39,723 nt of DNA from an uncultured Thermodesulfobacteriota bacterium (GCA_964528225.1 CAZGRT010000001.1:1-39723); one strand, 5' to 3'. Positions 3,399 through 23,701 are shown, numbered from the stretch's first letter. Notes: generated by a model from the letters alone, not told the origin. Translations and numbers: made by a program.

Positions 3399-3473
3399 CC
3401 GCACCCACTCGTCCTCCCGTTCGCCGTGCCGCTGGAGGAGTCCAAACGTCCCCGAGAATTATCCGGATGGCTC

Positions 3474-3502
3474 TTGACGCAGTGCAGCAAAGCGGGTAGC
3501 TT
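3474..3502 (+). promoter_or_regulatory. Candidate sigma70-type promoter (TTGACG-17 nt-TAGCTT) with a TGC-rich spacer, a possible PhaR operator
   Basis: TTGACG lies at 3474-3479 and TAGCTT at 3497-3502, with exactly 17 nt between them. The spacer contains GCAGTGCAGC. The promoter sits about 20 nt upstream of the GGAGGA RBS of the 3523 gene. Confidence 0.4.
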
Positions 3503-3522
3503 CCCGCTCCACGGAGGACGAC

Positions 3523-4008: not shown

Positions 4009-4037
4009 TGCCCGTCACGCGAAGGGAGGACGCCGGG

Positions 4038-5291: not shown

Positions 5292-5309
5292 GCGAGAAAG
5301 GACCGCGCC

Positions 5310-6374: not shown

Positions 6375-6395
6375 ACCCGGGGGGACCGGGAACGC

Positions 6396-6425
6396 GAGGG
6401 GCCTGCTCCGGCGCAGGGGCCCCTC
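6396..6425 (+). terminator. Possible terminator hairpin after phaC
   Basis: GAGGGGCC (6396-6403) pairs with GGCCCCTC (6418-6425), followed by CTTCCTTCC. The T-tract is poor. Confidence 0.35.
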
Positions 6426-6472
6426 CTTCCTTCCGGCACCTCGCGCCAGGAACGCCGGCCGGAAAAATGGCG

Positions 6473-6501
6473 TTGACCACCTGAGGCGACTTCCGTATCA
6501 T
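6473..6501 (+). promoter_or_regulatory. Sigma70-type promoter of cspA (TTGACC-17 nt-TATCAT)
   Basis: TTGACC lies at 6473-6478 and TATCAT at 6496-6501, with exactly 17 nt between them. The implied leader is about 250 nt, in keeping with the long 5' UTRs of cold-shock genes. Confidence 0.6.
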
Positions 6502-6755
6502 CGCGCCGCTCGATGCGTTCCGCGACGGACGGGAAGCGCGTCGTACGAGATTCACCCAGCGTCGGACTTCAAAGAGGGAGCGGCCGAGGCGGGCTTGCTC
6601 CCTCTCTTGCGTTCCGCGCCGGGCAACCGAGCCACTCCGATGGAACAAGAACAGCGACAGGCAGTGGACCTCCACCTCTCTGAGCTTTTCGAGCCATCGT
6701 CAGTGCAACACATGGGTCAGAAGCCCAGAGTCTAGGAAGAAAGGAGGTACGCACC

Positions 6756-6959
6756 ATGGCAAGAGGAACCGTGAAGTGGTTCAACGACCAGAAGGGGTTC
6801 GGGTTCATCACCCAGGAGAACGGTGGCCCGGACGTCTTCGTGCATTTCAGCGCCATCCAGGGGCAGGGTTTCAAGACCCTGGCCGAGGGCCAGGCGGTGG
6901 AATTCGAGGTCACCCAGGGCCCCAAGGGCGCCCAGGCCTCGAACGTCACGCCCGTCTGA
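6756..6959 (+). CDS. cspA: Cold-shock protein, CspA family
   Basis: 67 aa: [34 protein letters not shown]. It carries the RNP1 (KGFGFI) and RNP2 (VFVHF) motifs, and AAGGAGG lies 8 nt upstream. Confidence 0.98.
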
Positions 6960-6980
6960 TCTGACGCCGAGCGCGTGAAG

Positions 6981-7019
6981 GAAGAGCGGGTCCTCTCTCG
7001 GGGACCCGCTCTTCTTTTT
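6981..7019 (+). terminator. Rho-independent terminator of cspA
   Basis: A perfect 13-bp stem pairs GAAGAGCGGGTCC (6981-6993) with GGACCCGCTCTTC (7002-7014). The loop is 8 nt and TTTTT follows at 7015-7019. Confidence 0.9.
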
Positions 7020-7345
7020 CGCCCTCGGTCGCGTCGGCCCCCCCTCCCGCTCCCGAGGGCTCCCGAATTCCCAGGCGGTCCCCCCGCCCTCGTCCTGGCG
7101 GCCGGTCGCCGAGCGCAACCCGCCCTTCCGGTACCGGGGACGGCCCCGGGATCGGCACCACGAAAACGCTTCGACAGGGAGACGGGGACGGCGGAGCTAG
7201 CGTGCGGTCCGGCGCTCCCGGAGCCAGGCCGCGACATCGGCCTGGAGCTTCCGCTCCATGGCGGCGGGCTGGACCTCCGGGGCCCCTCTCCGCCGCAGGA
7301 CCTGGACGCGGGGCGCTGTTTCGGTGGACGTGCGTGACGCGGTCT

Positions 7346-8608: not shown

Positions 8609-9094
8609 ATGGGAACGCTGCACGTTGTCGGCATTTCGGACTGCAAGACGTCCTCCGACCCCTCCGACTCCGTCGTCACCTACGGGCTGGGATCGTGCGT
8701 CGGCGTCGTCCTGTACGACGCGCGAGCCGCGATCGGCGGCATGGCCCACGTGATGCTGCCCGACTCCCGATGGCGACGGGGAGCGCGGGACTCCAACCCA
8801 CACATGTGCGCCGACACGGCCGTCCCGGCACTCCTCGGGGCAGTGACGTCACTGGGCGCCGCCCGGGAGCACCTGGTCGCCAAACTGGCAGGCGGCGCGA
8901 ACATGCTCGTGCGCTCCGCCCTGTTCGACATCGGGGCGCGCAACGCGGGCGCCCTCCTGGCCCTTCTCCGCCGGGAGAACATCCCGGTCGCCGGCGCGAG
9001 CCTGGGGGGCTCGGTGGGCCGTTCGATGCAGTTTCGGCTGCACGACGGACTGGTCAGGGTGCAGGTACTCGGGCGAGGCACCGAGACGCTATGA
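8609..9094 (+). CDS. cheD: Chemoreceptor glutamine deamidase CheD
   Basis: 161 aa. The motif TYGLGSCVGVVLYD...GGMAHVMLP matches the CheD catalytic Cys/His region. There is no obvious SD. Confidence 0.85.
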   Translation: MGTLHVVGISDCKTSSDPSDSVVTYGLGSCVGVVLYDARAAIGGMAHVMLPDSRWRRGARDSNPHMCADTAVPALLGAVTSLGAAREHLVAKLAGGANMLVRSALFDIGARNAGALLALLRRENIPVAGASLGGSVGRSMQFRLHDGLVRVQVLGRGTETL

Positions 9095-9948
9095 GCCTGG
9101 CGCAGATCCTCGTTCGACTGGAGTCGCTGCCGCCCTTCCCCGAGGTCGCCGCCCGGTTGCTCCGGACCTGCCAGGACCCGGACGTGGACCTCGCCTCCGT
9201 CGCGGCCATCCTGGAGCGCGATCCGGCCATGGCGGCGAACGTCCTCCGGGCCTGCAACGCCCCGTATTTCGGCCTGCGGGGCCGCGTCGCGTCGGTGCGC
9301 CACGCGACCAGCCTCCTCGGCATCCGCAACGTCCTGCAGATCACGATGACCGTCCTCTCCTCCGGGCACCTGGCTTCGCCCCAGGTCGGCTACGGCCTCG
9401 GACCCGGCGACCTGTGGCGAACCTCGGTCGCGTCGGCGCTCGCCGCCGAACTCGTGGCCCAGGAGGTTTCCTACCCCCAGGTCGAGACCGCCTACACGGC
9501 GGGCCTGCTCCAGGACGTGGGCAAAATCGTTCTGGCCGAGTTCGTGGAGAACGCAGCCGAGGCGATCCAGGCTCTGCTGGCAGACGGGGCGGCGTGGCAG
9601 GAGGCCGAAGCGAGGGCCCTCGGGATGACCCACCCCGAGGTGGGCGCGCGACTGCTCTCGCGCTGGGGGTTTCCGTCGGCCATCGTGGACGCTGTGCGGA
9701 CCCACCATCGGCCCTCCGAGGCGACCGTCGATCCGACCCTGACCGCCATCTCCCACCTCGCCGACGCCCTGAAGATGACCCTCGGCGTGGGGTTGGGTGC
9801 CGACGGGCTGGCGTACGAACTGGACGAGGGCGCCCTGGGCGCCCTGGGACTGGCCGACCCCTCGAGGCTCGAGGGGCTCGTTGCCGAGCTGGGGCGGCGG
9901 GTGTCCGGCGCGCAGGAATGGTTCGAGGCGGCGGGAGGGGGCCGATGA
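9091..9948 (+). CDS. HDOD domain-containing signalling protein
   Basis: 285 aa. The start overlaps the cheD stop (ATGA). The N-terminus reads LPPFPEVAARLLRTCQDPDVDLASVAAILERDPAMAANVLRACNAPYFGL, with LLQDVGKIVL and GMTHPEVGARLLSRWGFP further in. All are typical HDOD features. Confidence 0.85.
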   Translation: MSLAQILVRLESLPPFPEVAARLLRTCQDPDVDLASVAAILERDPAMAANVLRACNAPYFGLRGRVASVRHATSLLGIRNVLQITMTVLSSGHLASPQVGYGLGPGDLWRTSVASALAAELVAQEVSYPQVETAYTAGLLQDVGKIVLAEFVENAAEAIQALLADGAAWQEAEARALGMTHPEVGARLLSRWGFPSAIVDAVRTHHRPSEATVDPTLTAISHLADALKMTLGVGLGADGLAYELDEGALGALGLADPSRLEGLVAELGRRVSGAQEWFEAAGGGR

Positions 9949-10376
9949 GGGTCTGGAGTTCTCGATTCTCGTTTGAGACGACCGGCCGGGGACACGTGGT
10001 GGACCTCACCCCGAGGCTCGAGCAGTGGATCGCGGCCCAGCGCATCGGCGAGGCGCAGGGGGTGCTGTTCGTCCCCGGGTCCACCGCCGGGGTCACGACG
10101 ATCGAGTACGAGCCGGGCGTGGTGCGCGACCTGCAGGAAGCGCTGGAAAAACTGGCGCCCTCCGGCGCCCCGTACCATCATGACGCGGCTTGGGGCGACG
10201 GCAACGGCTACGCGCACGTCCGCGCCGCCCTGCTCGGCCCCTCCCTCGCGTTCCTGGTGCGGGACGGGCGACTGCTCCGCGGCACGTGGCAGCAGGTGGT
10301 GCTCTGCGACTTCGACAACTGCAGCCGGAAACGCACGGTGGAGGTGCAGGCGATGGGAACGCCGGGGGAAGGATGA
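9945..10376 (+). CDS. yjbQ: YjbQ/UPF0047 family protein (secondary thiamine-phosphate synthase)
   Basis: 143 aa with an ATGA overlap to the upstream gene. Recognisable segments are VVDLTPRLEQWI, GVLFVPGSTAGVTTIEYEPGVVRDL, and HHDAAWGDGNGYAHVRAALLGPS. Confidence 0.85.
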   Translation: MRVWSSRFSFETTGRGHVVDLTPRLEQWIAAQRIGEAQGVLFVPGSTAGVTTIEYEPGVVRDLQEALEKLAPSGAPYHHDAAWGDGNGYAHVRAALLGPSLAFLVRDGRLLRGTWQQVVLCDFDNCSRKRTVEVQAMGTPGEG

Positions 10377-11356
10377 GCGACGCGGACGCCGTGGAACGGC
10401 TGGAGTTCCAGAACCCCGCGCACCTGGCGGTGCTGGTCGGGGAGCGGGAGGTGCACCTGCGGGAACTGGCCGCCCTGCTCCACGACGTGAGCCTGGCCAG
10501 CCGGGGGAATGCGGTCCAACTGCGCGGCGACCCCGTCGCGGTGGAACTGGCCCGGGAGGTCCTGACCCAACTGTACGCCCTCGTCGAGGAGGGATACCCC
10601 CTCTACCGGGCGGACGTGGACCACGCGGTGCGCATCCTGCGCGCCAACCGAAGGGCGCGGCTCAAGGAGATCTTCCTGGACGCCGTGTTCATCGCCTCCG
10701 ACCGCAGGGTGATCAGCCCCAAGAGCGTGGCCCAGAAGGCCTACATCGAGGCGATGCGGAACTTCGACGTCGTCTTCGGCATCGGGCCGGCCGGCACGGG
10801 GAAGACCTATCTCGCGATGGCGATGGCGGTGGCCGCCCTCACGAAGCGGCAGGTGAACCGGATCATCCTCACGCGCCCTGCGGTGGAGGCCGGGGAAAAG
10901 CTGGGATTCCTCCCCGGGACGCTCTACGAGAAGGTCAACCCGTACCTGCGCCCCCTCTACGACGCGCTCCACCACATGATGGACTTCGAGAAGGCCGCCA
11001 AACTGCTGGAGAAGGGCATCATCGAAGTGGCGCCCCTCGCCTTCATGCGCGGCCGGACCCTGGACGACTCCTTCGTGATCCTCGACGAGGCCCAGAACAC
11101 GACGTCCGACCAGATGAAGATGTTCCTGACACGCCTGGGCTTCGACAGCAAGGCGGTGGTGACCGGCGACATCACCCAGACCGACCTTCCCCCGGGCAAG
11201 GTCTCCGGCCTCGTGGAGGTTCAGGACGTGCTCCGGAGCGTGCCCGGCATCCGGTTCTGCTATTTCTCCCGGGACGACGTCGTGCGCCACCCCCTGGTGC
11301 AGGAGATCATCGAGGCCTACGAGTCCCAGGCGCTGCGCGTGCGGGAGGAGCCGTAG
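10373..11356 (+). CDS. phoH: PhoH-like ATPase (YbeZ)
   Basis: 327 aa with an ATGA overlap upstream. It has Walker A (GIGPAGTGKTYLAMA), RPAVEAGEKLGFLPG, and FVILDEAQNTT. Confidence 0.93.
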   Translation: MSDADAVERLEFQNPAHLAVLVGEREVHLRELAALLHDVSLASRGNAVQLRGDPVAVELAREVLTQLYALVEEGYPLYRADVDHAVRILRANRRARLKEIFLDAVFIASDRRVISPKSVAQKAYIEAMRNFDVVFGIGPAGTGKTYLAMAMAVAALTKRQVNRIILTRPAVEAGEKLGFLPGTLYEKVNPYLRPLYDALHHMMDFEKAAKLLEKGIIEVAPLAFMRGRTLDDSFVILDEAQNTTSDQMKMFLTRLGFDSKAVVTGDITQTDLPPGKVSGLVEVQDVLRSVPGIRFCYFSRDDVVRHPLVQEIIEAYESQALRVREEP

Positions 11357-11358
11357 CC

Positions 11359-13368
11359 GTGCGACCGGGCCGGACCGTCGCGGCACTGGCCGGGTGCGCC
11401 GCCCTGGGCTTCGTGACCGGAGGGGCCCTCGTGCTGGCCCGGGGCCTCCCCCAGGTTTCGGCCCTCGAGGACTTCACGCCGCCCTCCTCCACCCGCGTCT
11501 ATTCGTCCGACGGGAACCTGCTCGCGGAGTTCGCGACCCAGCGTCGCACCCCCGTGGCCCTCGATGCGGTGCCACACGACCTCGTCCGATGTGTCCTCGC
11601 GATCGAGGATCACCGCTTCTTCGAGCACATGGGCATCAACGTCGGCCGCATCCTCAAGGCGGTCGCCGTGGACCTGGCCAAGGGCCGCCTCGCCGAGGGC
11701 GGCTCCACCATCACACAGCAGCTTGCGAAGATCCTGTTCCTCACCCCCGAGAAGACCCTGACCCGGAAACTCCGGGAGGCCCTGCTCGCCCTCGAGATCG
11801 AACGACGGCACACCAAGGAGGAGATCCTCGCCTTCTACCTGAACCAGATCTACCTGGGGAACGGCGCGTACGGGGTGGCGGCGGCGGCGCAGGTCTACTT
11901 CGCCAAGCCCCTGGCCGACCTGGACCTCGCCGAGTGCGCCTTGATCGCGGCCCTGCCGAAGGCGCCCTCCCTGTACGATCCCCTCCGGAACCCGGAGCGC
12001 GCCCGGGCCCGGCGCGATCTCGTGCTTCGCCGACTCCTCCAGCTGGGGTGGGTCTCCGCGGAGCAGGCCTCCGCGGCGCTTGCGCAAGACGTCCCGGCGG
12101 CCCGCCCCGACGTCCAGCGGGTGTCGGCGCCCTACTTCGTGGAGGCCGTGCGCCGCCGACTCCTGGAACACCTGGAGATCGACCTCGTCTACCAGGGCGG
12201 TCTGCGCGTCTACACGACCCTCGACTCCGGGCTCCAGAAGGCCGCCGAGTCCGCCCTGGAGAAGGCCTTGGCCGCCGTGGACCGGAGACACCCGCGGCGG
12301 CAGCCGAAGGCCCAGGGGGCGGTCCTGGCCCTGGATCCCGCGACCGGCTCGGTGCGGGCCCTGGTCGGGGGGAGGAACTGGTCCGAGAGCTCCTTCGACC
12401 GGGCGTTCCAGGCACGGCGTCAGCCGGGAAGCGCCTTCAAGCCTTTCGTGTACCTGGCCGCCCTGGAGACCGGCCTCACCCAGGCCCGCACCCTGCTGGA
12501 CGCCCCGGCGAGCTACCGCGGGGCCTCCCTCTCCCGTCCGTGGACGCCGAGCAACTACGACGGGGAATTCCTGGGAGAGATGACCCTGCGCAAGGCCCTG
12601 GCCCTGAGCCGCAACCTGCCGGCCGTGCGCCTCATGGAGGAGCTCGGCAAGGCCCGGGTGGAGCAGGCGGCGTCGGAGCTCGGGCTGGCCGGCCCCTTCG
12701 GGGAAGGGTTGGCCGCGGCGCTCGGCGTCGGCGGGAGCAGCCTGGTGGAACTGGTGCGCGCCTACGCCGTCTTCCCGGCCGGGGGCCTCCTCCCCGAGCC
12801 CCACCTGATCCGGGCCGTGTACGGACCCGACGGGCGAAACCTCTGGGAGCGCAACGGTGCCGCACGACGGGTCCTGGACCCGGTCACGGCCTACGTGGCG
12901 GCCGACATGCTCCGGGCGGTCGTGGAGTCCGGCACCGGGAAGGCCGCACGGGCCCTGCCCTTCCCCGTGGCCGGGAAGACCGGGACCACGGACGACCAGC
13001 GAGACGCCTGGTTCGTCGGGTTCTCGAGCCGACTCGCCCTCGGCGTCTGGGTGGGGAGAGACGACAACTCCCCCCTGGGCTACGCCGAAACCGGCGCCCA
13101 GGCCGCCCTGCCCGCCTGGATCGACACGATGCTGGCTTCGGCCGCGGAAGGCCCTCCGCCTCCCTGGGCGCCCCCCCCCGGCGTCGTCGTGGCCGAGATC
13201 GACGTCGCCTCGGGGCTCCGGGCCGGCCCGGCGTGCAAGGAAACCGCCTTCGCCGCCTTCGCCCGGGGAACGGAGCCTCGCTCCCCGTGCGATCGGGAGT
13301 CGTTCCAGTGGGACCGGGTCGCACGGGACATCGGCCTGGGGCGCAGCGCCCGGAGAACCGGGCCTTGA
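11359..13368 (+). CDS. mrcA: Class A penicillin-binding protein (PBP1A family, glycosyltransferase plus transpeptidase)
   Basis: A GTG at 11359 lies 2 nt after the phoH stop. The GT51 motifs are EDHRFFEHMGIN, GGSTITQQLAK and RKLREALLALEIE. The transpeptidase motifs are SAFKP and KTGTT. Confidence 0.9.
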   Translation: MRPGRTVAALAGCAALGFVTGGALVLARGLPQVSALEDFTPPSSTRVYSSDGNLLAEFATQRRTPVALDAVPHDLVRCVLAIEDHRFFEHMGINVGRILKAVAVDLAKGRLAEGGSTITQQLAKILFLTPEKTLTRKLREALLALEIERRHTKEEILAFYLNQIYLGNGAYGVAAAAQVYFAKPLADLDLAECALIAALPKAPSLYDPLRNPERARARRDLVLRRLLQLGWVSAEQASAALAQDVPAARPDVQRVSAPYFVEAVRRRLLEHLEIDLVYQGGLRVYTTLDSGLQKAAESALEKALAAVDRRHPRRQPKAQGAVLALDPATGSVRALVGGRNWSESSFDRAFQARRQPGSAFKPFVYLAALETGLTQARTLLDAPASYRGASLSRPWTPSNYDGEFLGEMTLRKALALSRNLPAVRLMEELGKARVEQAASELGLAGPFGEGLAAALGVGGSSLVELVRAYAVFPAGGLLPEPHLIRAVYGPDGRNLWERNGAARRVLDPVTAYVAADMLRAVVESGTGKAARALPFPVAGKTGTTDDQRDAWFVGFSSRLALGVWVGRDDNSPLGYAETGAQAALPAWIDTMLASAAEGPPPPWAPPPGVVVAEIDVASGLRAGPACKETAFAAFARGTEPRSPCDRESFQWDRVARDIGLGRSARRTGP

Positions 13369-14771
13369 TCCGGGAACTGACGGCAGACGTCGCGCCCGAG
13401 ACCGCGTTCCTCTCCCTGGCGGACAGGGCCTACCCGTTCTTCCTCGACAGCGGCGAGGGCTGTCCCCGGCTGGGAACCCGGTCGTACGTGGGTGCGGACC
13501 CGTTTCTGGTCGTCCATGCCAAAGGAACGGAGGCCCGCCTCTCATGGCCCCGGACCGGCCGCACCGAACTCCGGCGCGGCAACCCCTTCCACCTGCTTCG
13601 CGACCTCCTCCGGGAGCACCGGGGGCCGCCCGTCGGCGCGGCGATGACCGGCGGCGGCGCGGTGGGCTACCTGGGCTACGACCTGTTCCCGTTCGTGGAG
13701 GCCATCCCAAGGTCGGCGCGAGACGACCTCCGCATGCCCGACCTTTTCCTCGGCTTCTACGACACCGTCGGCATCTTCGACCACGCGGCCGGGCGGGCCA
13801 CCCTGTGCTCGGGCGACTGGGGCGGACCCGAGGGCCCGCGCCGGGAGGCGTGGGAGGCGTGGGACGGCCTCACGGACGCTCCCGGGCCCGGGCGGCGGGA
13901 CGGCGCCGGGTTCGCGGCCGGTCCGGTGGAGTCCAACTTCACCCGGGAGCAATACGAGGCGGCGGTCCTCCGCGTGAAGGAGCACATCGCGGCGGGGGAC
14001 GTCTACCAGGTGAACCTCTCCCAGCGCTTCCGCGTCCCCTTCGGCGGGTCGCCCCTCTCCTTCTACCGGCGCCTCCGCCGCACGAGCCCTGCGCCCTTCG
14101 GCGCCTGCCTCTTCCCCGACGGTTTCTCCATCCTCTCCAACTCGCCGGAACGGTACCTCCGGATCGAGGGAGACCGCATCGAGACCCGGCCGATCAAGGG
14201 AACGCGCCCCCGGGGCGCGACGCCCCGGGAGGACCGGAAGCTGGCGGAGGAGTTGCGAACGAGCGTTAAGGACCGGGCCGAGCACGTGATGATCGTGGAC
14301 CTCGAGCGCAACGACCTGGGCCGGGTGTGCCGGTACCGTTCCGTCCACGTGCCGGAGCTCGAGGTGGTGGAGTCCTACGCGAACGTCCACCACCTCGTCT
14401 CCACCGTGGCGGGCCTCGTACACCCCTCCAAGGAGGCCGTGGACTGCCTGCGGAACTCCTTCCCGGGCGGGTCGATCACCGGGGCACCCAAGGTGCGGGC
14501 GATGGAGATCATCGAGGCGCTGGAGCCCACGGCGCGTGGCGTGTACTGCGGGGCCATCGGCTACATCGACTTCGCGGGCCGCGCCGACCTCAACATCGCG
14601 ATCCGGACCGCCGTGCTCCAGGGCGACAGCCTGTACGTGCAGGTGGGCGGCGGGATCGTAGCCGACTCCGACCCTGCCGCGGAGTACGAGGAAACCCTGG
14701 TGAAGGCCCGGTCGTTCCTTCGGGTGCTGGGCAGGGAGGAGGGCGAGTGGACCGCGCGCGCCGCTCCGTGA
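13365..14771 (+). CDS. pabB: Aminodeoxychorismate synthase component I (PabB)
   Basis: This is a chorismate-utilising enzyme fold. Its PIKGT motif carries Lys, as in PabB, rather than the PIAGT of TrpE. Further motifs are DLERNDLGRV, SITGAPKVRAMEII and GGGIVADSDP. The only in-frame start near the PBP stop is a TTG at 13365 (TTGA overlap), so the start is uncertain. Confidence 0.85.
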   Translation: MIRELTADVAPETAFLSLADRAYPFFLDSGEGCPRLGTRSYVGADPFLVVHAKGTEARLSWPRTGRTELRRGNPFHLLRDLLREHRGPPVGAAMTGGGAVGYLGYDLFPFVEAIPRSARDDLRMPDLFLGFYDTVGIFDHAAGRATLCSGDWGGPEGPRREAWEAWDGLTDAPGPGRRDGAGFAAGPVESNFTREQYEAAVLRVKEHIAAGDVYQVNLSQRFRVPFGGSPLSFYRRLRRTSPAPFGACLFPDGFSILSNSPERYLRIEGDRIETRPIKGTRPRGATPREDRKLAEELRTSVKDRAEHVMIVDLERNDLGRVCRYRSVHVPELEVVESYANVHHLVSTVAGLVHPSKEAVDCLRNSFPGGSITGAPKVRAMEIIEALEPTARGVYCGAIGYIDFAGRADLNIAIRTAVLQGDSLYVQVGGGIVADSDPAAEYEETLVKARSFLRVLGREEGEWTARAAP

Positions 14772-15610
14772 CCGGCCCGCCGCCGCCGGAGCGTACCGGC
14801 ACCGTCTCGGCTGAGGACCGGGGCCTCCTCTACGGCGACGGGGTGTTCGAGACCCTGCGCGTGTACGCCCGGACCCCGTTCCGGCTGCCGGCCCACTGGG
14901 ACCGCCTTTCCGCCTCCGCCGCCTTCCTCGGGATTCCCGTCCCGGACGTGGACCCCTCCGCCGAAGTGGAGCGGGCCCTCGAGGCCCGCGGCCTCGACGA
15001 CGCTGGCGTCCGCATCACGCTGACCCGAGGCCCCCTCCCCGAGGGCCCCCGGCCGACGCCCGCCGGAGGCGCTCCGACGCTCCTGTTCCAGGCTCGGCCC
15101 CTCAGGCCCGGCTTGGAGGAGCTCGCGCGGACGGGCGTGGCGGCGAGGCGGGTACCCTGGCCCCTGCGGGCGCGGGGAATGCCCCTCCACGGGCACAAGA
15201 CCCTCAACTACCTCGCGAGCGTGGTGGCCCTGGGGGCTGTCGGCCCCGGCGAGGAGGCGGTGCTGCTGAACACCGAGGGGCACCTCGCGGAGGGGGAGAC
15301 ATCCAACCTGTTCTGGGTCCGCCGCGGAATCCTGTACACCCCCGCTCCCGAGGCCGGCTGCCTGCCGGGGCTGGCCCGGGCCCTGGTCCTGGAGGAGGCC
15401 CGGCGTCTCGGCCTGGAGGTCGAGGAGGGACTGCACCCGTTCCGAGCGCTGGCCGGCGCCGAAGAGGCGTTCCTCACCAACTCCCTCGTCGAGGTGCTCC
15501 CTCTCGTCGCCCTGGACGGGGACCCGCTGGGGGGAGGGCGACCCGGGTCGGTGACGCGGCGCCTGCAGCGCGCGTACCGCGGGTGCGTTGAGGCCGAGGC
15601 GGGGAGATGA
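14747..15610 (+). CDS. pabC: Aminodeoxychorismate lyase (PabC), class IV aminotransferase fold
   Basis: A GTG at 14747 is preceded by GGGAGGAGG, and GTG 14768 is an alternative start. Recognisable segments are RGLLYGDGVFETLRVY, HKTLNYL and GETSNLFWV. The gene follows pabB directly. Confidence 0.8.
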   Translation: MDRARRSVTGPPPPERTGTVSAEDRGLLYGDGVFETLRVYARTPFRLPAHWDRLSASAAFLGIPVPDVDPSAEVERALEARGLDDAGVRITLTRGPLPEGPRPTPAGGAPTLLFQARPLRPGLEELARTGVAARRVPWPLRARGMPLHGHKTLNYLASVVALGAVGPGEEAVLLNTEGHLAEGETSNLFWVRRGILYTPAPEAGCLPGLARALVLEEARRLGLEVEEGLHPFRALAGAEEAFLTNSLVEVLPLVALDGDPLGGGRPGSVTRRLQRAYRGCVEAEAGR

Positions 15611-16719
15611 CGCCGGTCGCGGGCGCCTCCTGCCGGGACTACGCGCAGGTGCGGGAAGCCCTCGCCCGGGCCCTGGAGCTCCTGCCGGGCCCCTTCGCGG
15701 CCCGGGGCGACCCCCTCCTCGTGAAGCCCAACCTCCTGGCGGCCCACGACCCGCACGAAGCGGTGACCACCCACCCCGCCGTCGTCGACGCGGCCCTGTC
15801 CCTGGCGTCGGACCTCGGCGCCCGGGCGGTGGTGGCCGACTCCCCGGGGCTGGGCTCCGTGCACCGGGTCGCCCGGGTCGCGGGGGTGGCCGAGGTGTGC
15901 CGTCGCCACGGGGTCCCGTTGCTGGACCTCGGCGACTCGGAGGCGGCCGAGGTCTCCGGCGCGACCTACCGCGGTCTGCGCCTGGCGCGGGAAGCCGTGG
16001 AGACCCGCTGGCTCTGGAACCTCCCCAAGTGGAAGACCCATACCATGATGGGTCTCACTCTCGGCGTGAAGAACCTCTTCGGCTGCGTGCCGGGCAAGAG
16101 CAAGGTGGCCGCCCACTTCCGGGCGGGGCGTCGGCCCCAGGTGTTCGCCCGCCACCTCCTCGACATCGAGGGGGCACTGAGCCCGTGCCTCACCGTGCTC
16201 GACGGGGTGGTGGCCATGGAGGGGGCGGGCCCCAGCCGGGGTCGGCCCCTGGAGCGGGGACTCCTCCTCGCTTCGGGAGACGCCGCCGCGCTCGACTGGG
16301 AGGCGACCCGCCTGTCGGGGTTCGCGCCGCAGGACGTCCCCACCGTGGCGGAGAGCGTGGCGAGCGGGAGGCTCGACCCCGGCAGGGTGCGCCTGCTCGG
16401 CGTCGAGCCCCGGCCGCTCCGGTTCCGCCCGGCGCCCGGGAGCCCGTGCGACTGGCCTCTGCCCCGGCCTCTCAAGCGCCTGCTCCGCGGGGTGGTGTCG
16501 CCCGCGCCCCGCTTCGACGCAGCCGGCTGCAAGGGTTGCGGCGCCTGTTCCGAGGCGTGCCCCGCCGGGGCTCTCCGGCCGGGCACCCCACCGGAGCTCT
16601 CGCAGGAGACGTGCATTCGCTGCTACTGTTGTCAGGAACTGTGCCCCCACGGAGCCGTGGCGATTCCGCGCCGGCTCCCGGCCCGGTTCTCCTTCTCGGG
16701 GCGCGGGAGGAAGGCATGA
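15607..16719 (+). CDS. DUF362 domain protein with a C-terminal 2x[4Fe-4S] ferredoxin domain
   Basis: 370 aa with an ATGA overlap to pabC. LLVKPNLL and NLPKWKTHTMMGLTLGVKNLFGCVPG are typical of DUF362. The C-terminus carries CKGCGACSEACP and CIRCYCCQELCP. Confidence 0.75.
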   Translation: MTPVAGASCRDYAQVREALARALELLPGPFAARGDPLLVKPNLLAAHDPHEAVTTHPAVVDAALSLASDLGARAVVADSPGLGSVHRVARVAGVAEVCRRHGVPLLDLGDSEAAEVSGATYRGLRLAREAVETRWLWNLPKWKTHTMMGLTLGVKNLFGCVPGKSKVAAHFRAGRRPQVFARHLLDIEGALSPCLTVLDGVVAMEGAGPSRGRPLERGLLLASGDAAALDWEATRLSGFAPQDVPTVAESVASGRLDPGRVRLLGVEPRPLRFRPAPGSPCDWPLPRPLKRLLRGVVSPAPRFDAAGCKGCGACSEACPAGALRPGTPPELSQETCIRCYCCQELCPHGAVAIPRRLPARFSFSGRGRKA

Positions 16720-18374
16720 ACGGGATCCTCGTCGGCATCGACGTGGGCGGAACCCACACCGACGGCGTAGCCGTTGAGGGCGGCCGCGTGGTGCACAAGG
16801 TCAAGGTCCGTACCCGGGAGGACCTCACGTCCTGCACCCTGGAAGCCCTGCGGGAACTTCTCGAGGGGGTGAGCACGGCGTCGATCCGGCGGGTCGTCCT
16901 CTCCACCACGCTCGTCACCAACGCCGTGGCCGAAGGGCGGCTCGAGCCGGCGGGCATGGTGCTGACGGCCGGCCCGGGAATGAACCCGGGCCACCTGGGC
17001 GAGACTCCCGACGTCAAGGTGGTCCGCGGCGCCGTGGATCACCGGGGCCGGGAGATCGTTCCCCTGGACGAGGGGCAGGTGGAGAGTCACCTCGCGACGC
17101 TCGCGGACCGAGGCGTGCGCGTGCTCGCCGTCGTGGGGAAGTTCTCGGTGCGCAATCCCACCCACGAACTCCGCGTCGCCGAGCTGGCCGGGGACCGCTT
17201 CGACTACGTGGCCCTCGGGCACGGCCTCTCCGGCTCCCTCAACTTCCCCCGCCGCGCCGCCACGGCGTACCTCGCGGCAGCGGTCTGGCGGCGCCACTCG
17301 GAGTTCGTGAAGTCGATGGTGGCCGCCGTTCGGGATTTCGGCATCCGGGCCCCGCTCTACCTGCTCCGGGCCGACGGCGGCACGCAGACCGCCGACTCCT
17401 TCCGGAACCCGGCGGAGGGCTCCCTGTCCGGGCCTGCCGCGAGCGTCATGGGAATCCAGGGACTCGACGAGGTGGACGGCGACACCCTCGCCGTGGACGT
17501 GGGGGGCACGACCACGGACCTGTCCCTCTTCACCCGGGGTGTACCCCTGCTGGAGCCGCGGGGGGCCACCGTCGGACCCTACCGGACCCAGATCCGGTCC
17601 CTCTATACCCGCTCCCTGGGCGCCGGCGGCGACAGCCTCGTCCACCTCGGCCAGGGTGAGATCCGCGTGGGCCCCCAGCGCATGGGGGCGCCGGCCTCCC
17701 TGGGAGGGGAACACCCCACGCCCACCGACGCCCTCGTGGTCCTCGGGCGGGCCGTGGGGGACCGCGCCCGGGCCCGGGAGGCCCTCACCCCGGTGTCGTC
17801 AGCGATCGGGGTCGGGGTGGAGGAGTGCGCCCGTCGCGTCCTCCGGGCCCTGGCCGTCTCCATCGCCGCGGCGGCCCGCACCCTGCTCGACGAGGTGAAC
17901 GGAAAGCCCGTCTACACCATCCACGAGCTCCTCGAGGGACACCGGGTCGAGCCCCGCCGCGCCGTGGCCGTCGGCGGTCCGGCCCGGGCCCTGGCCCCCT
18001 ACATCGAGGAGGCGCTGGACCTCCCCGTGCACGTGCCCGGCCACTTCGACGTCGCGAACGCGGTGGGGGCCGCCGTCGCCCGGGTGAACCTCGAGGTGAA
18101 CCTGCTCGCCGACACCGCGCTGGGCCGCCTCTCGATCCCCGAGGCCGGGGTCTACCGCCCCGTGGAGCGAGACTACGGGGTGGAAGAGGCCCGGGCCGAG
18201 GCCTTCGAGACCCTCCTGGGCCTGGCCCGGGAGAAGGGCATGCTCGACGAGGAGGCCGTTCCGGAGGCGGCCGAGGAGGAGAGCTTCCGCATCGTGGACG
18301 GCTTCTCGACGGTGGGCAGCATCCACCGCCTCCGGGTCCAGATCCGTCCCGGCATCCTCGGCCGGGTGGAGTGA
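16716..18374 (+). CDS. Hydantoinase/oxoprolinase A-type (HyuA-like) ASKHA ATPase family protein
   Basis: 552 aa with an ATGA overlap upstream. The two phosphate-binding loops are GIDVGGTHTD and AVDVGGTTTD. No HyuB-type partner gene is present in the window. Confidence 0.8.
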   Translation: MNGILVGIDVGGTHTDGVAVEGGRVVHKVKVRTREDLTSCTLEALRELLEGVSTASIRRVVLSTTLVTNAVAEGRLEPAGMVLTAGPGMNPGHLGETPDVKVVRGAVDHRGREIVPLDEGQVESHLATLADRGVRVLAVVGKFSVRNPTHELRVAELAGDRFDYVALGHGLSGSLNFPRRAATAYLAAAVWRRHSEFVKSMVAAVRDFGIRAPLYLLRADGGTQTADSFRNPAEGSLSGPAASVMGIQGLDEVDGDTLAVDVGGTTTDLSLFTRGVPLLEPRGATVGPYRTQIRSLYTRSLGAGGDSLVHLGQGEIRVGPQRMGAPASLGGEHPTPTDALVVLGRAVGDRARAREALTPVSSAIGVGVEECARRVLRALAVSIAAAARTLLDEVNGKPVYTIHELLEGHRVEPRRAVAVGGPARALAPYIEEALDLPVHVPGHFDVANAVGAAVARVNLEVNLLADTALGRLSIPEAGVYRPVERDYGVEEARAEAFETLLGLAREKGMLDEEAVPEAAEEESFRIVDGFSTVGSIHRLRVQIRPGILGRVE

Positions 18375-18382
18375 GCGGCGCC

Positions 18383-19717
18383 ATGCGAACGATCCGAGCC
18401 CCCCACCGAACCGGCGTGGTCTTCTTCCCGGCCTTCGACTGGGCCATCTCCCCCACCCACCCCGAGCGCGAGGAGCGGCTCCTCTACACCCGGGACCAGA
18501 TCTTCGAGGAGGGGCTCCTCGACGTGGAGGGGATCGAGGAGTTCACCCCCTCCGTGGCCACCCTCGAGGACATGGAGCGCGTGCACACCTGCTACCCCTC
18601 CAGCCAGGCGGTCGTCAGCTCCTCCCACCGCATCTCGGCGGGGGGGGCGATCACGGCCGCCCGCAAGGTCCTCTCCGGGGAGGTGGAGCGGGCCTTCGCC
18701 CTGGTGCGGCCCCCGGGCCACCACGCCCGGCGGGTGGTCCACGGACTGCGGGGGTTCTGCATCGTGAACATCGAGGCGGTGATGATCGAGCACGTGCGCC
18801 GCCACGTGCGGGACATGCGGGTGGCCATCGTCGACACCGACTGCCACCACGGCGACGGCACCCAGGACGTGTACTGGAACGACCCGGACACCCTGTTCAT
18901 CTCGATCCACCAGGACGGCCGCACCCTGTACCCGGGCACCGGGTTCCCGGACGAGTTCGGGGGCCCGAACGCTTACGGGACCACCCTCAACGTCCCCCTT
19001 CCCCCGGGCACCAACGACGAGGGGCTGCTCCACGTCATAGACCACTTCGTGCTCCCCGTGCTGGAAGACTGGAAGCCCGACCTCATCGTGAACTCGGCCG
19101 GCCAGGACAACCACTTCACCGACCCCATCACGGACATGTCGATCACGGCCCAGGGGTACGCCGCGCTCACCCGCCGTCTCCGGCCCCACGTCGCCGTGCT
19201 CGAGGGGGGCTACTCGGTGCAGGACGCTCTCCCCTACGTGAACACGGGCATCCTGCTGGCCATGGCGGGCCTCGACACCGGCGCCCTGATCGAACCCGAC
19301 TACCAGCCGGAGCTCTTCCCCAGCTCCGAGCGGAACCAGGAGTACATCCGGCGCCTGTCCGAGGCGCTCCTCGAGAAGTACCGCCACCGGGACGCCCTCA
19401 AGGAGAAGGCCTTCGGGGGCAAGATCCACCACGAGGAGATGCGCCAGGTGTTCTACGACGGCGCGGGCATCACGGAGAACCAGAAGGAGCGCGTCCGGAT
19501 CTGCGGAGACTGCGCCGGGGTGGTGACCCTGGAGAGCTGGGTGGGGGGCCGCGGCAGGCTCCTGGCCGTGGAACTGCCCCGCCGCTGCTGCCTGCGGTGC
19601 CGCGAGGAGGGCCTGCAGGCCTACCACGCCGCGAGCCTGGGGGACCTGTCCCTGGTCGAACTCCGGGACCGGGAGGCCGACCGCGTGGAGCGGAAGAGCG
19701 TCTTCGACGGCGTGTAG
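18383..19717 (+). CDS. Histone deacetylase/acetylpolyamine amidohydrolase family enzyme with a Cys-rich C-terminal extension
   Basis: 444 aa. The signature is complete: RPPGHHA, DTDCHHGDGTQ and LEGGY. An extra ~120 aa follow the core, carrying CGDC...CCLRC. Confidence 0.85.
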   Translation: MRTIRAPHRTGVVFFPAFDWAISPTHPEREERLLYTRDQIFEEGLLDVEGIEEFTPSVATLEDMERVHTCYPSSQAVVSSSHRISAGGAITAARKVLSGEVERAFALVRPPGHHARRVVHGLRGFCIVNIEAVMIEHVRRHVRDMRVAIVDTDCHHGDGTQDVYWNDPDTLFISIHQDGRTLYPGTGFPDEFGGPNAYGTTLNVPLPPGTNDEGLLHVIDHFVLPVLEDWKPDLIVNSAGQDNHFTDPITDMSITAQGYAALTRRLRPHVAVLEGGYSVQDALPYVNTGILLAMAGLDTGALIEPDYQPELFPSSERNQEYIRRLSEALLEKYRHRDALKEKAFGGKIHHEEMRQVFYDGAGITENQKERVRICGDCAGVVTLESWVGGRGRLLAVELPRRCCLRCREEGLQAYHAASLGDLSLVELRDREADRVERKSVFDGV

Positions 19718-19722
19718 CCCGG

Positions 19723-19744
19723 CGGGAGGGAGGGGGGCCTCCCG
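19723..19744. terminator. Hairpin between the convergent HDAC-fold gene and pgm, a possible bidirectional terminator
   Basis: CGGGAGG (19723-19729) pairs with CCTCCCG (19738-19744) around an 8-nt G-rich loop. It sits in the 42-nt gap between the two stop codons. There is no U-tract. Confidence 0.35.
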
Positions 19745-19759
19745 TGGACGGCCCCGCCC

Positions 19760-21412
19760 TCAGGCCCCGGCCGCTCCGAAGGCGTCGGCCACGATGGCCC
19801 TGGCCTCCTCCTGGATGCGGCGCAGGTGCTCCGGGCCCCGGAAGCTCTCGGCGTAGATCTTGTAGACGTCTTCCGTCCCCGAGGGGCGGGCGGCGAACCA
19901 GCCCCCTTCGGTCACGACCTTGAGCCCCCCGATGGGCGCTCCGTTGCCCGGAGCCCGCGTCAGCTTCTCGCGGATGGGGTCGCCGGCCAGTTCCCTCGCC
20001 CTCACGTGGTCCGGCGACAGCTCCTTGAGCGCCGCCTTCTGGCGCGACGTGGCCGGCGCGTCGATCCGTTCGTAGACCGGGCTCCCGAAGCTCGCCTCCA
20101 GGTCGCCGTACAGCTGCCCCGGGTCGCGCCCGGTGCGCGCCGTGATCTCGCACGCCAGGAGGTCGAGGAGGATGCCGTCCTTGTCGGTGGTCCAGACCGT
20201 GCCGTCCCGCCGCAGGAACGACGCCCCGGCGCTCTCCTCCCCGCCGAAGCCGACCGACCCGTCGAGCAGCCCGCCGACGAACCACTTGAAGCCCACCGGA
20301 ACCTCGCACAGCCGCCGTCCCAGCGACGCGGCGACGCGGTCGATCATCGAGGTGGAGACCAGGGTCTTTCCCACCGCGGCCTCCGGGCTCCAACCGGGAC
20401 GGTTCCGGAACAGGTAGGAGATCGCGACCGAGAGGTAGTGGTTGGGGTTGAGCAGACCCCCGTCCCGGGTGACGATGCCGTGCCGGTCCACGTCCGCGTC
20501 GTTCCCGAAGGACAGGTCGAACCGGTCGCGAAGCCGGATGAGGCCCGCCATGGCGTGGGGCGAGGAGCAGTCCATCCGGATCTTTCCGTCCTTGTCCACG
20601 GTCATGAAGGAGAAGGTCGGGTCCACGACCCGGTTGACCAGGTGCAGGTCGAGCCGGTAGCGGTCGGCGATGGGGTCCCAGAAGTCCACCGACGCGCCTC
20701 CGAGGGGGTCCACTCCGATCCGAAGGCCCGCGCCGGCGACGGCCTCCAGGTCCACCGCCTGCCCGAGATCGTCCACGTAGGAGCGCACGTAGTCGTGCTC
20801 CCGGACGTTCCCGGACCGCAGCGCCCGCTCGTAGGGAACGCGGCGCACCGCGGAGATCCCCCCGGCGAGGAGCTCGTTGGCCCGGGCCTCGATGGCCTGC
20901 GTGGTCTTCGTGTCGGCCGGCCCGCCGTCGGGGGGGTTGTACTTGAAGCCGCCGTCCTCCGGCGGGTTGTGGGAGGGGGTGATCACAACCCCGTCCGCAG
21001 GCGCGGAGGTGCGGCCGCGGTTGTACGTGAGGATGGCGTGGGAGACCACCGGCGTCGGGGTGAACCGGAGCCCCGGCTGTACCAGCACGGTGACGCCCCA
21101 GGCACCGAGAACCTCGAGGGCGCTCCGGAGGGCCGGCTCGGAGAGGGCGTGGGTGTCGCGGCCCAGGAACAGGGGACCGGTGACGCCCGCCCTCCGACGG
21201 TGCTCGCAGATGGCCTGGGTGACCGCCAGGATGTGCGCCTCGTTGAAGCTCCGGGCCAGGGAGCTCCCACGGTGCCCCGACGTGCCGAACGAGACCCGCT
21301 CCGCCGGCTCGCCCGGGTCGGGCTCCAGGGTGTAGTACGCCGAGACCAGGGCGGGGATGTCGGCGAGCAGCGAGCGGGGTGCCGGCTGACCGGCCAGTTC
21401 GTGGAGAGCCAC
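19760..21412 (-). CDS. pgm: Phosphoglucomutase, alpha-D-glucose phosphate-specific
   Basis: 550 aa starting at a GTG. The N-terminus (M)[30 protein letters not shown] aligns from residue 1 with E. coli Pgm as I recall it. The active-site region is TSGHRG, and GDADVDRHG-like and GEESAG loops are present. Confidence 0.95.
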
Positions 21413-21422
21413 GGCGGCCGCC

Positions 21423-22169
21423 TCAGCGACCCTGGGCCTGGTTCGCCACCGCCTTGGCCGCGGCCTCCGCCGCCGCCGCGTCGCCCAGGTAGTACCGGCG
21501 CAGGGGCGTGAGGTCGTCGTCGAGTTCGTAGACCAGCGGGATTCCGGTGGGGATGTTCAGTTCCACGATGTCCTCGTCGGACATCCGGTCGAGGTGTTTC
21601 ACGAGGCCTCGGAGGCTGTTCCCGTGGGCCGCGATGACCACGCGCCGGCCGGCCCGGATCTGCGGCACGATGGTCTGCTCGTAGTACGGAAGGGTTCGGG
21701 CCACCGTGTCCTTGAGGCACTCCGAGGCCGGAAGCTGGTCCGGGGAGAGATCGGCGTACCGGGGGTCCGTGCCGGGATGACGGGGATCGTCGGACTCGAG
21801 GGGGGGCGGGGGCACCCCGTAGCTCCGTCGCCAGATCTTGACCTGGTCCATGCCGTGGCGTTCGGCCGTCTCGGCCTTGTTGAGCCCCTGGAGGGCCCCG
21901 TAGTGCCGCTCGTTGAGACGCCACGTGTTGTGCACGGGGATCCACATGAGGTCCATCTCCTCCAGCGCCAGCCACAGGGTCTTGATGGCCCGCTTGAGCA
22001 CCGAGGTGTACGCGACGTCGAACACGTACCCTTCCTGTCGAAGCACGCGGCCGGCCTGCAGGGCCTCCTCCGTCCCCTTCTCCGAGAGCCCCACGTCCGT
22101 CCAGCCCGTGAAACGGTTCTCCCGGTTCCACACGCTCTCCCCGTGCCGCAACAGGACCAGCTTCTTCAT
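21423..22169 (-). CDS. gpmA: 2,3-bisphosphoglycerate-dependent phosphoglycerate mutase
   Basis: 248 aa: [32 protein letters not shown]. It has the RHGE catalytic motif and later AAHGNSLR. Confidence 0.97.
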
Positions 22170-22225
22170 CGTCCGTTTCCTTTCCCGCGCCGCTGCGTGC
22201 GGCGCCTCCGGCGGCCTGCGCCCCC

Positions 22226-23701
22226 CTACCGGGACACGGGCCGACCCAAGTCGATCAACTCCATCCGGTGATTGGTGTCCGGGTGTTTGGACGACGGCCC
22301 CTCGGTGAGAAGGACCAGCTCGCCCTCCATCCCGTGCCGGCGAAGCCACTGCCTCGCGTACGTCCGCCAGTCCTCCGGGTGGTCCGGCTCGTGCACCGGG
22401 TGGACGCCACAGGAGAACTGGAGGCCCCGGCACGTGGCCTCCCTCGAACTGACCGCCACGACCCACACCGGAGGGCGGAAGCGGGCGATGTTGCGGGCGG
22501 TGGTTCCCGTTCGGGTCGGCACGAACACGGCCGCCGGGGTAACCCGGCGCAGGGCCCCCTCGACGCTCCACGCGAGGAGATCCGAGAGCCGGCGGGTCCC
22601 CTGGGCGAAGGCATCCTCGCCCTCGGCGTCCCCGAGTCTGCGGCGGTGAGGCTCCACCGCGGACGCGATCCGGACGAGCATCTCGACGGCCTCCACGGGG
22701 TAGCGTCCCATGGCCGACTCCCCCGAGAGCATGACGCCGTCCGTGCCGTCCAGGATCGCGTTGGCCACGTCGGTCGCCTCCGCCCGCGTCGGGCGGCGGC
22801 TCGCGGTCATCGACTCCAGCATCTGGGTCGCCGTGATGATCGGCTTCCCGAGGCGGTTGGCCTTCCGCATCAGCCGCTTCTGCACGAGGGCGATCTGCTC
22901 GATGGGGATCTCCACGCCGAGGTCCCCCCGGGCGATCATCACCCCGTCCGCTTCTTCCAGGATGGCGTCCACCCGGTCGAGCGCCCTCGCCCTCTCGATC
23001 TTGGCGATCACGAACGGGGCGTGCCCCGCTGCGGCTGCAGCCTCCCGCACCGCCCTCACGTCCTCGGCGCCCTCCACGAAGGACTGGCTGACCGCGTCGA
23101 CCCCGTGGGCCAGGGCGAACGCCAGGCACCGGCGGTCCTCGTCGGTGAAGGCGCGGATTCCCAGGTCCACGCCGGGCAGGTTGAGGCCCTTGCGCGACCG
23201 CAACTCGCCTCCCGCGCGGACCAGACAGCGGACCTCTCGCGGTCCGGTCTCGCGGACCTCCAGCTGGATGAACCCATCGTTGAGGAACAGCGCGTCTCCC
23301 GGCTTCACCACCCGGGGGAGGCGCTCGAAGCTCACCGAGGCGAGGTCCGGGCCTCCCTCCACCTCGTCCACGGTGAGGGTGAACTCCTGCCCGCTGCGCA
23401 GCTCGATCGGCTCCTGCGCCAGGCGACCGATGCGGAGCTTCGGCCCGGGCAGGTCCGCCATGATCGCCACCCGCCGGCCCGCGACGCGCTCCGCCGCGCG
23501 GACCCTCTCGATCGTCCGGCCGTGGCTGGCGAAGTCGCCGTGGGAGAAGTTCAGTCGCACCACGCTCATGCCCGCGTGGATGAGCCGGACCAGGACCTCC
23601 TCCGAGTCCGACGCGGGCCCCACGGTGCACACGATCTTGGTCTTGCTCGGCGGCGGCACTCCGCCCGCTGCCACGGCAGGTCCTCTCGCTTCGGCCGGCA
23701 T
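22226..23701 (-). CDS. pyk: Pyruvate kinase
   Basis: I prefer the ATG at 23701 because GGAGAGGGG lies just upstream. Motifs are [22 protein letters not shown] and [12 protein letters not shown]. 491 aa. Confidence 0.95.

Follow-up and report, generated by a model that had tools for sequence, protein, structure and literature searches.

A hydantoinase-A-type ATPase and a Cys4-bearing HDAC-fold enzyme form a conserved gene pair across bacterial phyla

ATP-dependent lactamases and carboxylases of the HyuA/HyuB type include N-methylhydantoinase, OplAB, CapAB and the acetone and acetophenone carboxylases. In these systems the HyuA-type subunit spends ATP on phosphorylating either bicarbonate or the substrate in its lactim or enol form, and transfer through a tunnel is followed by hydrolysis or coupling on a second, metal-containing subunit, HyuB (PMC8453981). 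Here we describe a gene pair from a 39,723-nucleotide stretch of DNA of an uncultured Thermodesulfobacteriota bacterium (GCA_964528225.1 CAZGRT010000001.1:1-39723, the whole of which we call the window), in which a HyuA-like ATPase gene is followed by a gene for an enzyme of the HDAC fold rather than by HyuB (PF02538). The closest described relatives of this second enzyme are the bacterial class-II-like deacylases HdaH, Kdac1, PrpH and DmhA, which belong to cluster 1 of a recent survey (Graf et al. 2024, PMC11532494); the terms hydantoinase, oxoprolinase, zinc ribbon and zinc finger occur nowhere in the main text of that survey. Each protein of the pair thus belongs to a known superfamily, and what is new is their constant pairing. 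The pair comprises the following features:

16716-18374, plus strand: HyuA-like ASKHA ATPase, 552 amino acids (aa), first gene of the pair (Hydant_A_N, E = 2.8e-32; Hydantoinase_A, E = 3.3e-42)
18383-19717, plus strand: HDAC-fold protein, predicted to be Zn-dependent and deacylase-like, 444 aa, second gene of the pair (Hist_deacetyl, E = 3.4e-66)
19415-19714, plus strand: C-terminal Cys4 domain of the HDAC-like protein, ~100 aa (C374-x2-C377 ... C403-x2-C406, invariant)

The HyuA-like protein shares with the described enzymes the domains Hydant_A_N (PF05378) and Hydantoinase_A (PF01968), both of which exceed their gathering scores, as well as both ASKHA phosphate motifs, phosphate-1 (GIDVGGTHTD) and phosphate-2 (AVDVGGTTTD), where G11, G12, T13, D16, D261, G263, G264 and T265 are invariant in orthologues. 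The gene arrangement is also the same, in that the ATPase gene adjoins the gene of a metal-dependent (Zn) partner, as HyuA stands beside HyuB. The protein differs from them, however, in several respects. Its adenosine-binding GxxPGP region can be aligned (VGPQRMGAPASLGG versus VGPQSAGAVPGPVCYGRGG), yet with a three-residue deletion and without the PGP. Profile alignments to the matched PDB chains of HyuA type, which are N-methylhydantoinase, acetophenone and acetone carboxylase subunits and CapA, end at residue ~378-420. Its C-terminal 130-170 residues find no match in canonical HyuA or in Pfam, with residues 442-552 free of any Pfam family, and at 552 aa, compared to ~690 aa for the canonical full length, the protein is ~140 aa shorter than CapA and OplA. 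It lies far below all NCBIfam equivalog cut-offs, the best match being caprolactamase alpha (CapA) with 86.8 bits against a cut-off of 1000.

The HDAC-like protein reaches 224 bits with the Hist_deacetyl family (PF00850, cut-off 27.9), and H113, H114, D151, D153, H155, D242 and Y277 are invariant in 66 HDAC-like sequences. By motif analogy to HDAC8, we take H113 and H114 to be the His-His dyad, D153, H155 and D242 the zinc ligands, and Y277 the catalytic tyrosine. A Foldseek search with its AlphaFold2 (AF2) model (predicted local distance difference test score, pLDDT, 87.5) returned HdaH, Kdac1 and HDAC6 with E-values of 1e-22 to 1e-25 and target template modelling (TM) scores of 0.72-0.80. 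Together with PrpH, DmhA and other eukaryotic class II HDACs these are its closest structures, at 24-30% identity. Motifs and model both lead us to predict a Zn-dependent, deacylase-like enzyme, and the fold and catalytic residues are shared with the bacterial class-II-like deacylases, its best matches by Foldseek and by sequence (26-30% identity).

It is set apart from these deacylases in three ways. First, it belongs to a separate, tight orthologous group, strongly conserved at 57-60% identity across phyla. In a profile search of 1.84 billion representative sequences the members of this group scored 430-640 bits, whereas the next tier, composed of multi-domain proteins of ~800-1250 aa and proteins of ~350 aa, scored at most 300; judged by their lengths and PDB matches, the library itself carrying no names, these next-tier proteins appear to be HDAC6-like and HdaH-like, respectively. 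Second, the enzyme has two additional elements. One is the Cys4 domain, which forms a confident β-rich fold in the AF2 model (residues 349-439) and is probably a Zn-ribbon-type module; a Pfam search with an E-value limit of 10 gave no family for it, and a 21-sequence profile had no match among PDB sequences. Acetone carboxylase has a Cys4 zinc gamma subunit, but kinship of this subunit with the domain found no support in sequence. The other is an N-terminal motif, FFPAFDWAISPTHPEREERLLYT (residues 14-36, window 18422-18490), which is almost invariant across phyla and is at the same time modelled by AF2 with the lowest confidence of the whole protein (pLDDT ~58-69); it might serve as an interface or take on order only upon binding. 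Third, the family is almost always paired with a HyuA-like gene.

This pairing was established in a sample comprising the best 80 loci from a scan of one genome per GTDB species, 80 metagenome contigs from a scan centred on Syntrophales-type sequence, and nine look-ups. All loci were searched by tblastn with the window proteins, and adjacency was counted where the downstream DNA was sufficient. At least 588 loci in GTDB species genomes encode a HyuA-like relative. The best 80 of these come from Desulfobacterota, Clostridia (Moorella, Neomoorella, Tepidanaerobacter, Tissierellia), Oxalobacteraceae (Oxalobacter, Herminiimonas), Leptospirales and Spirochaetia, Kiritimatiellae, Pistricoccus and others, and carriers include the cultured Moorella, Oxalobacter formigenes, Herminiimonas and Desulfoluna, as well as a metagenome-assembled genome (MAG) assigned to Syntrophus aciditrophicus. 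The HyuA-like gene is immediately followed by the HDAC-like gene, in the same orientation, in all five loci of the clade to which the window belongs and in 147 of the 151 informative loci outside it (97%), with conserved sizes (~550 aa followed by ~436-444 aa) and with the Cys4 domain retained. The pairwise identities of the two proteins, compared over 129 loci, are correlated (r = 0.89), i.e. the two genes diverge together.

The four exceptions to adjacency are L060, L085, L107 and L167. For L060 (HyuA-like gene at 10001-11692) and L085 (10001-11650) there are 10 kb of downstream DNA, yet the HyuA-like gene is not followed by an HDAC-like one. In Desulfonema magnum, the place of the HDAC-like gene is taken by an open reading frame (ORF) of 1212 aa on the opposite strand.

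Around the pair, the flanking genes vary by lineage and include RlmN-HisI-HisG, EpmA-like, YcaO, MurL, Amidase_3 and NadE. At HyuA homologues of ~45% identity (Desulfoglaeba, Desulfatiglans, an Eremiobacterota MAG and two complete metagenome-assembled genomes) no more than the two genes, HyuA and then HDAC, is kept and the flanks are wholly different, and the same is seen in the nearest outgroup. Clustering of all ORFs from the first 87 loci gave no third conserved partner and no recurrent neighbour of ~580 aa that might represent HyuB; the clusters that did recur were antisense shadow ORFs and the lineage-specific EpmA-like, RlmN-HisI-HisG and NadE genes. Pfam scans likewise found no HyuB-type gene among the window genes, in agreement with the first-pass annotation of the window, and searches for defence systems with PADLOC had no match for either protein of the pair. 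The pair therefore normally stands alone among unrelated housekeeping genes and is inherited together across phyla, with intact catalytic motifs in both members and without the usual HyuB partner. That these housekeeping contexts vary is suggestive of a general role in metabolism or repair. Neither protein has so far been named beyond 'hydantoinase/oxoprolinase family protein' and 'histone deacetylase' in the annotation of carriers, and we found no description of the pair in the literature searched.

The first-pass annotation had instead regarded the pair and the preceding gene, which encodes a DUF362-ferredoxin protein, as a trio that is translationally coupled to pabB-pabC, the genes for 4-aminobenzoate (pABA) synthesis. 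As a unit, this trio did not hold up: in 147 of the 151 informative non-clade loci the HyuA-like and HDAC-like genes occur without DUF362 and without pabBC. Since the pair is kept across the survey and DUF362 accompanies it in no non-clade locus, the conserved unit is the pair. We are highly confident in regarding the pair as a conserved module in its own right and its linkage to pabBC and DUF362 as specific to one clade.

The explanation we favour overall combines this autonomy with an HDAC fold that takes the place of HyuB and a lineage-specific position next to pabBC; we judge it to be somewhat better than an even bet. The specific mechanism, drawn by analogy with the HyuA/HyuB lactamases and carboxylases, is more tentative. 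According to it, the two proteins would constitute a two-subunit, ATP-dependent Zn amidohydrolase, in which the ASKHA subunit would transfer phosphate from ATP to an oxygen of a small-molecule substrate, either a carbonyl or an amide (lactim/enol) one, and the Zn site of the HDAC fold would then carry out the hydrolysis in place of the metal-containing HyuB. The Cys4 domain and the invariant but poorly modelled N-terminal segment would be candidate docking surfaces, and the substrate would be a thermodynamically or kinetically stubborn amide or lactam. It is conceivable, if rather doubtful, that the pair represents an unrecognised class of two-component ATP-dependent amidohydrolases, in which a Cys4-bearing HDAC-fold enzyme replaces HyuB and which has a housekeeping function, acting on some stable amide or lactam. 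As to what this reaction might be, one can only speculate about an alternative 5-oxoprolinase-type repair or a salvage of folate- or pABA-derived amides, the latter of which would also account for the occasional linkage to pabBC.

Several points weigh against this proposal. No HyuA-HDAC fusion was found among the best 150 matches of the profile search described above. Enzymes of the HDAC fold hydrolyse ordinary amides without ATP, so that the need for an ATPase is left unexplained. The HyuA-like protein has no recognisable canonical C-terminal region and a shortened adenosine motif, for which reason its chemistry may differ from that of HyuA. Finally, the pair may have some functional tie to pABA or folate after all, given that the block of genes shared with pabBC is kept in the clade down to ~54% HyuA identity and that pabBC lies near the pair in two further loci, L035 and L078. 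Should the proposal be true, it would provide the first HDAC-fold enzyme coupled to an ATP-using subunit of the hydantoinase-A type, extending both enzyme families, and a role for a gene pair found in at least 588 GTDB species genomes, mostly of anaerobic species.

Alternatively, the HDAC-like protein could be a protein lysine deacylase, with the HyuA-like protein as its ATP-dependent regulator, chaperone or substrate-loading partner. The closest solved relatives, HDAC6, HdaH and Kdac1, are lysine deacylases, the catalytic tyrosine of active deacylases is present, and the Cys4 domain could mediate protein binding; moreover, Hsp70-type chaperones are found among the ASKHA proteins. We nevertheless regard this alternative as unlikely, as the partner belongs specifically to the hydantoinase-A type (Pfam E-values 1e-32 to 1e-42), whose characterised members act on small molecules, and as no acetyltransferase or target gene is conserved near the pair.

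The idea put forward in the first-pass annotation, that the trio could act in modification, salvage or de-acylation of an aryl-amine or amide derived from pABA and be co-expressed with pabB-pabC, rests on the arrangement of genes in the window and on the fact that two of the three families act on amide or lactam bonds. Because the GC content of the window is ~72%, raw ORF lists are full of shadow ORFs, and we therefore determined coding frames by a third-position GC (GC3) frame plot and a codon-position score. This singled out a co-directional string on the plus strand, pabB, pabC-like, DUF362, HyuA-like and HDAC-like, which is the end of a longer string of ten genes (8609-19717). In addition to the pair, the string contains:

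8609-9094, plus strand: CheD (Pfam)
9091-9948, plus strand: HDOD/HD protein (Pfam)
9999-10376, plus strand: UPF0047 (Pfam)
10373-11356, plus strand: PhoH (Pfam)
11359-13368, plus strand: PBP1A (Pfam)
~13365-14771, plus strand: pabB, aminodeoxychorismate synthase component I (Chorismate_bind, E = 2.5e-94, and Anth_synt_I_N)
14768-15610, plus strand: pabC-like gene, class IV aminotransferase fold, probable aminodeoxychorismate lyase (Aminotran_4, E = 2.5e-49)
15607-16719, plus strand: DUF362 protein, 370 aa, with the DUF362 domain at residues ~1-265 (Pfam DUF362, PF04015, E = 1e-46, and Fer4)
16504-16671, plus strand: C-terminal 2x[4Fe-4S] ferredoxin domain of the DUF362 protein (Fer4 Pfam matches; CKGCGACSEACP, CIRCYCCQELCP)

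Direct reading confirmed the junctions of the trio as first described: the stop codon of the pabC-like gene overlaps the DUF362 start in ATGA (15607-15610), the DUF362 stop overlaps the HyuA-like start in a second ATGA (16716-16719), and the HyuA-like stop TGA (18372-18374) is separated by the 8-nt spacer GCGGCGCC from the HDAC-like ATG at 18383. The translated lengths of 370, 552 and 444 aa were also correct, as were all quoted motifs (for the HDAC-like protein PPGHHA, DTDCHHGDGTQ and LEGGY) and the family assignments, for which profile searches gave DUF362 and Fer4, Hydant_A_N and Hydantoinase_A, and Hist_deacetyl, respectively. The packing, however, is not special to the trio. The pabB stop overlaps the pabC-like start in GTGA (14768-14771), PBP1A and pabB overlap in TTGA (13365-13368) provided that pabB uses a TTG start, a gap of 2 nt separates PhoH from PBP1A, and an ATGA overlap joins UPF0047 to PhoH and also CheD to HDOD, such that all junctions between 8609 (CheD) and 19717 (HDAC) are either 4-nt overlaps or gaps of at most ~50 nt. 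Since the ten genes are functionally heterogeneous, the overlap of stop and start codons is a trait of this genome region and no evidence for a shared pathway. While the overlapping or nearly abutting codons of the trio and pabB-pabC are thus real, they recur along the whole string from CheD onwards. Scans of the window for tRNAs and Rfam families had no match, and shuffled sequence folds as well as a hairpin that lies 3' of the HDAC gene.

The neighbourhood survey that had been suggested to assess the pABA link gave a mixed picture. The nearest homologues of the window proteins are found in Deferrisoma and in Deferrisomatales MAGs. The order pabB-pabC-DUF362-HyuA-HDAC, with its overlapping codons, is kept in five related loci (L001, L002, L008, L009 and L091), down to identities of ~54% for HyuA and ~53% for DUF362, which speaks for a pABA module. 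The block as a whole, however, runs from PhoH and PBP1A through PabB, PabC, DUF362 and HyuA to HDAC, as seen at HyuA homologues of 66% and 54% identity and at a DUF362 homologue of 54%, and the upstream order from CheD to PBP1A is also present in L001, L002, L009 and L091. As the block includes PhoH and PBP1A, conserved order by itself is no sign of a shared pathway, and overlaps of stop and start codons together with synteny in a single clade are insufficient to tie the genes to pABA metabolism.

Beyond the clade the order is absent. Among ~163 non-clade loci, DUF362 is near the pair in none and pabBC in two, which are independent of each other. In L035, a Syntrophaceae MAG, a PabB-PabC fusion of 603 aa (5256-7067, plus strand) starts at the very end of the HDAC gene, and in L078, a Desulfobacterium MAG, a fusion of 790 aa (17580-19952, minus strand) lies 4.5 kb downstream in convergent orientation; both carry Chorismate_bind and Aminotran_4 in one ORF. 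A single-copy gene in a 4-Mb genome would be expected ~0.44 times by chance in the 1.76 Mb of non-clade flanks, so that two occurrences are weak and non-significant support for the pABA idea (Poisson P ~0.07). Furthermore, in L092, where the HyuA-like protein shares 87% identity with its L035 counterpart, no pabBC follows the HDAC-like gene; the position of the L035 fusion is occupied there (6593-7298, minus strand) by a toxin-antitoxin-like pair, recognised by eye as an XRE-type antitoxin and a RelE/HigB-like toxin. A further 'pabB-like' match, in L053, proved to be merely that of a class IV aminotransferase, unaccompanied by a Chorismate_bind gene.

The DUF362 protein provides no better link. 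Its homologues fall into two groups: those of at least 52% identity are confined to the block-carrying clade and have a HyuA-like gene on the same contig wherever this was checked, whereas those of at most 47% lie, in three look-ups, next to DUF3047 and AsmA/YhdP or to GrpB, without pab, HyuA or HDAC genes. The closest relatives outside the clade (~43% identity) are in unrelated contexts, near neither pab genes nor the pair, and we found no tie of DUF362 to pabBC or to the pair outside this one clade. The 4.1 kb of the trio thus comprise a clade-specific gene, that of the DUF362-ferredoxin protein, and a two-gene module that is widely conserved.

Although the HDAC-like protein has among its structural neighbours PrpH, a propanil hydrolase and thus an aryl-acylamide hydrolase, as the pABA idea would call for, the rarity of pabBC and DUF362 beside the pair makes a dedicated pABA role of the trio quite improbable. 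We conclude that the position of the pair after pabB-pabC is a lineage-specific arrangement and not a dedicated pABA pathway.

With regard to the genes involved, pabB passes the NCBIfam model TIGR00553 (367.2 bits, cut-off 328.4), while all TrpE models remain below their cut-offs; its start is uncertain and may be the TTG at 13365, which overlaps the PBP1A stop, or a GTG at 13308. The pabC-like protein reaches no NCBIfam cut-off, having 146.6 bits against 308 for the best PabC model (PRK07650) and a similar score for a branched-chain aminotransferase model, and is assigned as PabC because of its context and of the PabB-PabC fusions in L035 and L078. The locus thus resembles known pabB-pabC operons and fusions in a pabB that passes the curated model, in the overlap of pabB with the pabC-like gene and in the fusion of both domains in other Desulfobacterota, and differs from them in that the pabC-like protein reaches no curated cut-off and that Pfam scans find no PabA-type gene among the window genes. 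A chorismate-supply and aromatic amino-acid cluster, consisting of EPSP synthase, prephenate dehydrogenase, DAHP synthase with a ferredoxin-like domain and a class I/II aminotransferase, is located ~12 kb from pabB-pabC on the opposite strand (31553-35836, minus strand).

The DUF362 protein carries two CxxCxxCxxxCP motifs at residues 308-319 and 336-347, whose cysteines (C308, C311, C314, C318, C336, C339, C342 and C346) are invariant in an alignment of 55 sequences. The structure comparison proposed in the first-pass annotation, which upheld the HDAC fold of the pair's second member, related the DUF362 model (pLDDT 91.6) to racemases of the LarA family, its best Foldseek matches (probability 1.0, TM 0.40-0.45), though at only 10-14% identity. 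DUF362 and LarA are members of one Pfam clan (PMC11770544). The DUF362 domain of the window thus has the fold and clan (CL0471) in common with the LarA/DUF2088 nickel-pincer racemases and differs from them in its low identity and in the added 2x[4Fe-4S] ferredoxin domain, which LarA lacks. The protein is not a member of the NCBIfam family Npun_F2552 (179 bits, cut-off 500), and PADLOC gave a marginal match in the ferredoxin region only. Like the other proteins of the trio, it reaches no curated NCBIfam equivalog model. In two independent loci (L088:8349-9077 and L089:8223-8918), the nearest non-clade relatives of the DUF362-ferredoxin protein are followed by DUF3047 and a large gene of the AsmA/YhdP family, which constitutes a different conserved neighbourhood for this subfamily.

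A role of the pair in β-lysine metabolism or elongation factor P (EF-P) modification, for example in the deacetylation or ring-opening of a lysine-derived amide, is suggested by 25 loci in which a gene for an EpmA-like protein with class II aminoacyl-tRNA synthetase fold is found no more than ~3 kb downstream of the HDAC gene, in most of them as its immediate neighbour in the same orientation and in one on the opposite strand. The best NCBIfam match of the HyuA-like protein to caprolactamase alpha points in the same direction, even though it is far below the cut-off. These EpmA/PoxA-like genes (tRNA-synt_2, ~300 aa) are found mostly in loci of the Desulfobacterales type, as exemplified by L078:13238-14146, L068:13097-14023 and L142:4144-5046. 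The association is therefore largely that of one broad lineage, in which the HDAC-like proteins are more similar to each other (median identity 0.68) than to those of other loci (0.62). The EpmA-like gene is absent from ~140 other loci, and the first 87 loci contain no recurrent EpmB or aminomutase gene, which makes this role very improbable. That the two genes are independent enzymes and neighbours by ordinary synteny, as the absence of fusion proteins from the best 150 profile matches might indicate, is hardly credible, because their adjacency and co-divergence, in the same order and orientation in at least six phyla with otherwise unrelated flanks, exceed what is expected of unrelated genes.

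Two further loci of the window lie outside the string. A class III polyhydroxyalkanoate (PHA) synthase locus is found at 2946-6374 (plus strand), with a PHB_acc_N regulator, an ORF of 161 aa, PhaE (PHA_synth_III_E) and a PhaC-like α/β-hydrolase. At 19760-23659 (minus strand), convergent to the HDAC-like gene, is a glycolytic trio of a phosphoglucomutase-family protein, a His_Phos_1 protein (phosphoglycerate-mutase-like) and pyruvate kinase. In the clade locus L091, a His_Phos_1 gene is also located downstream of the pair in convergent orientation and is followed by cobalamin genes rather than by glycolytic ones.

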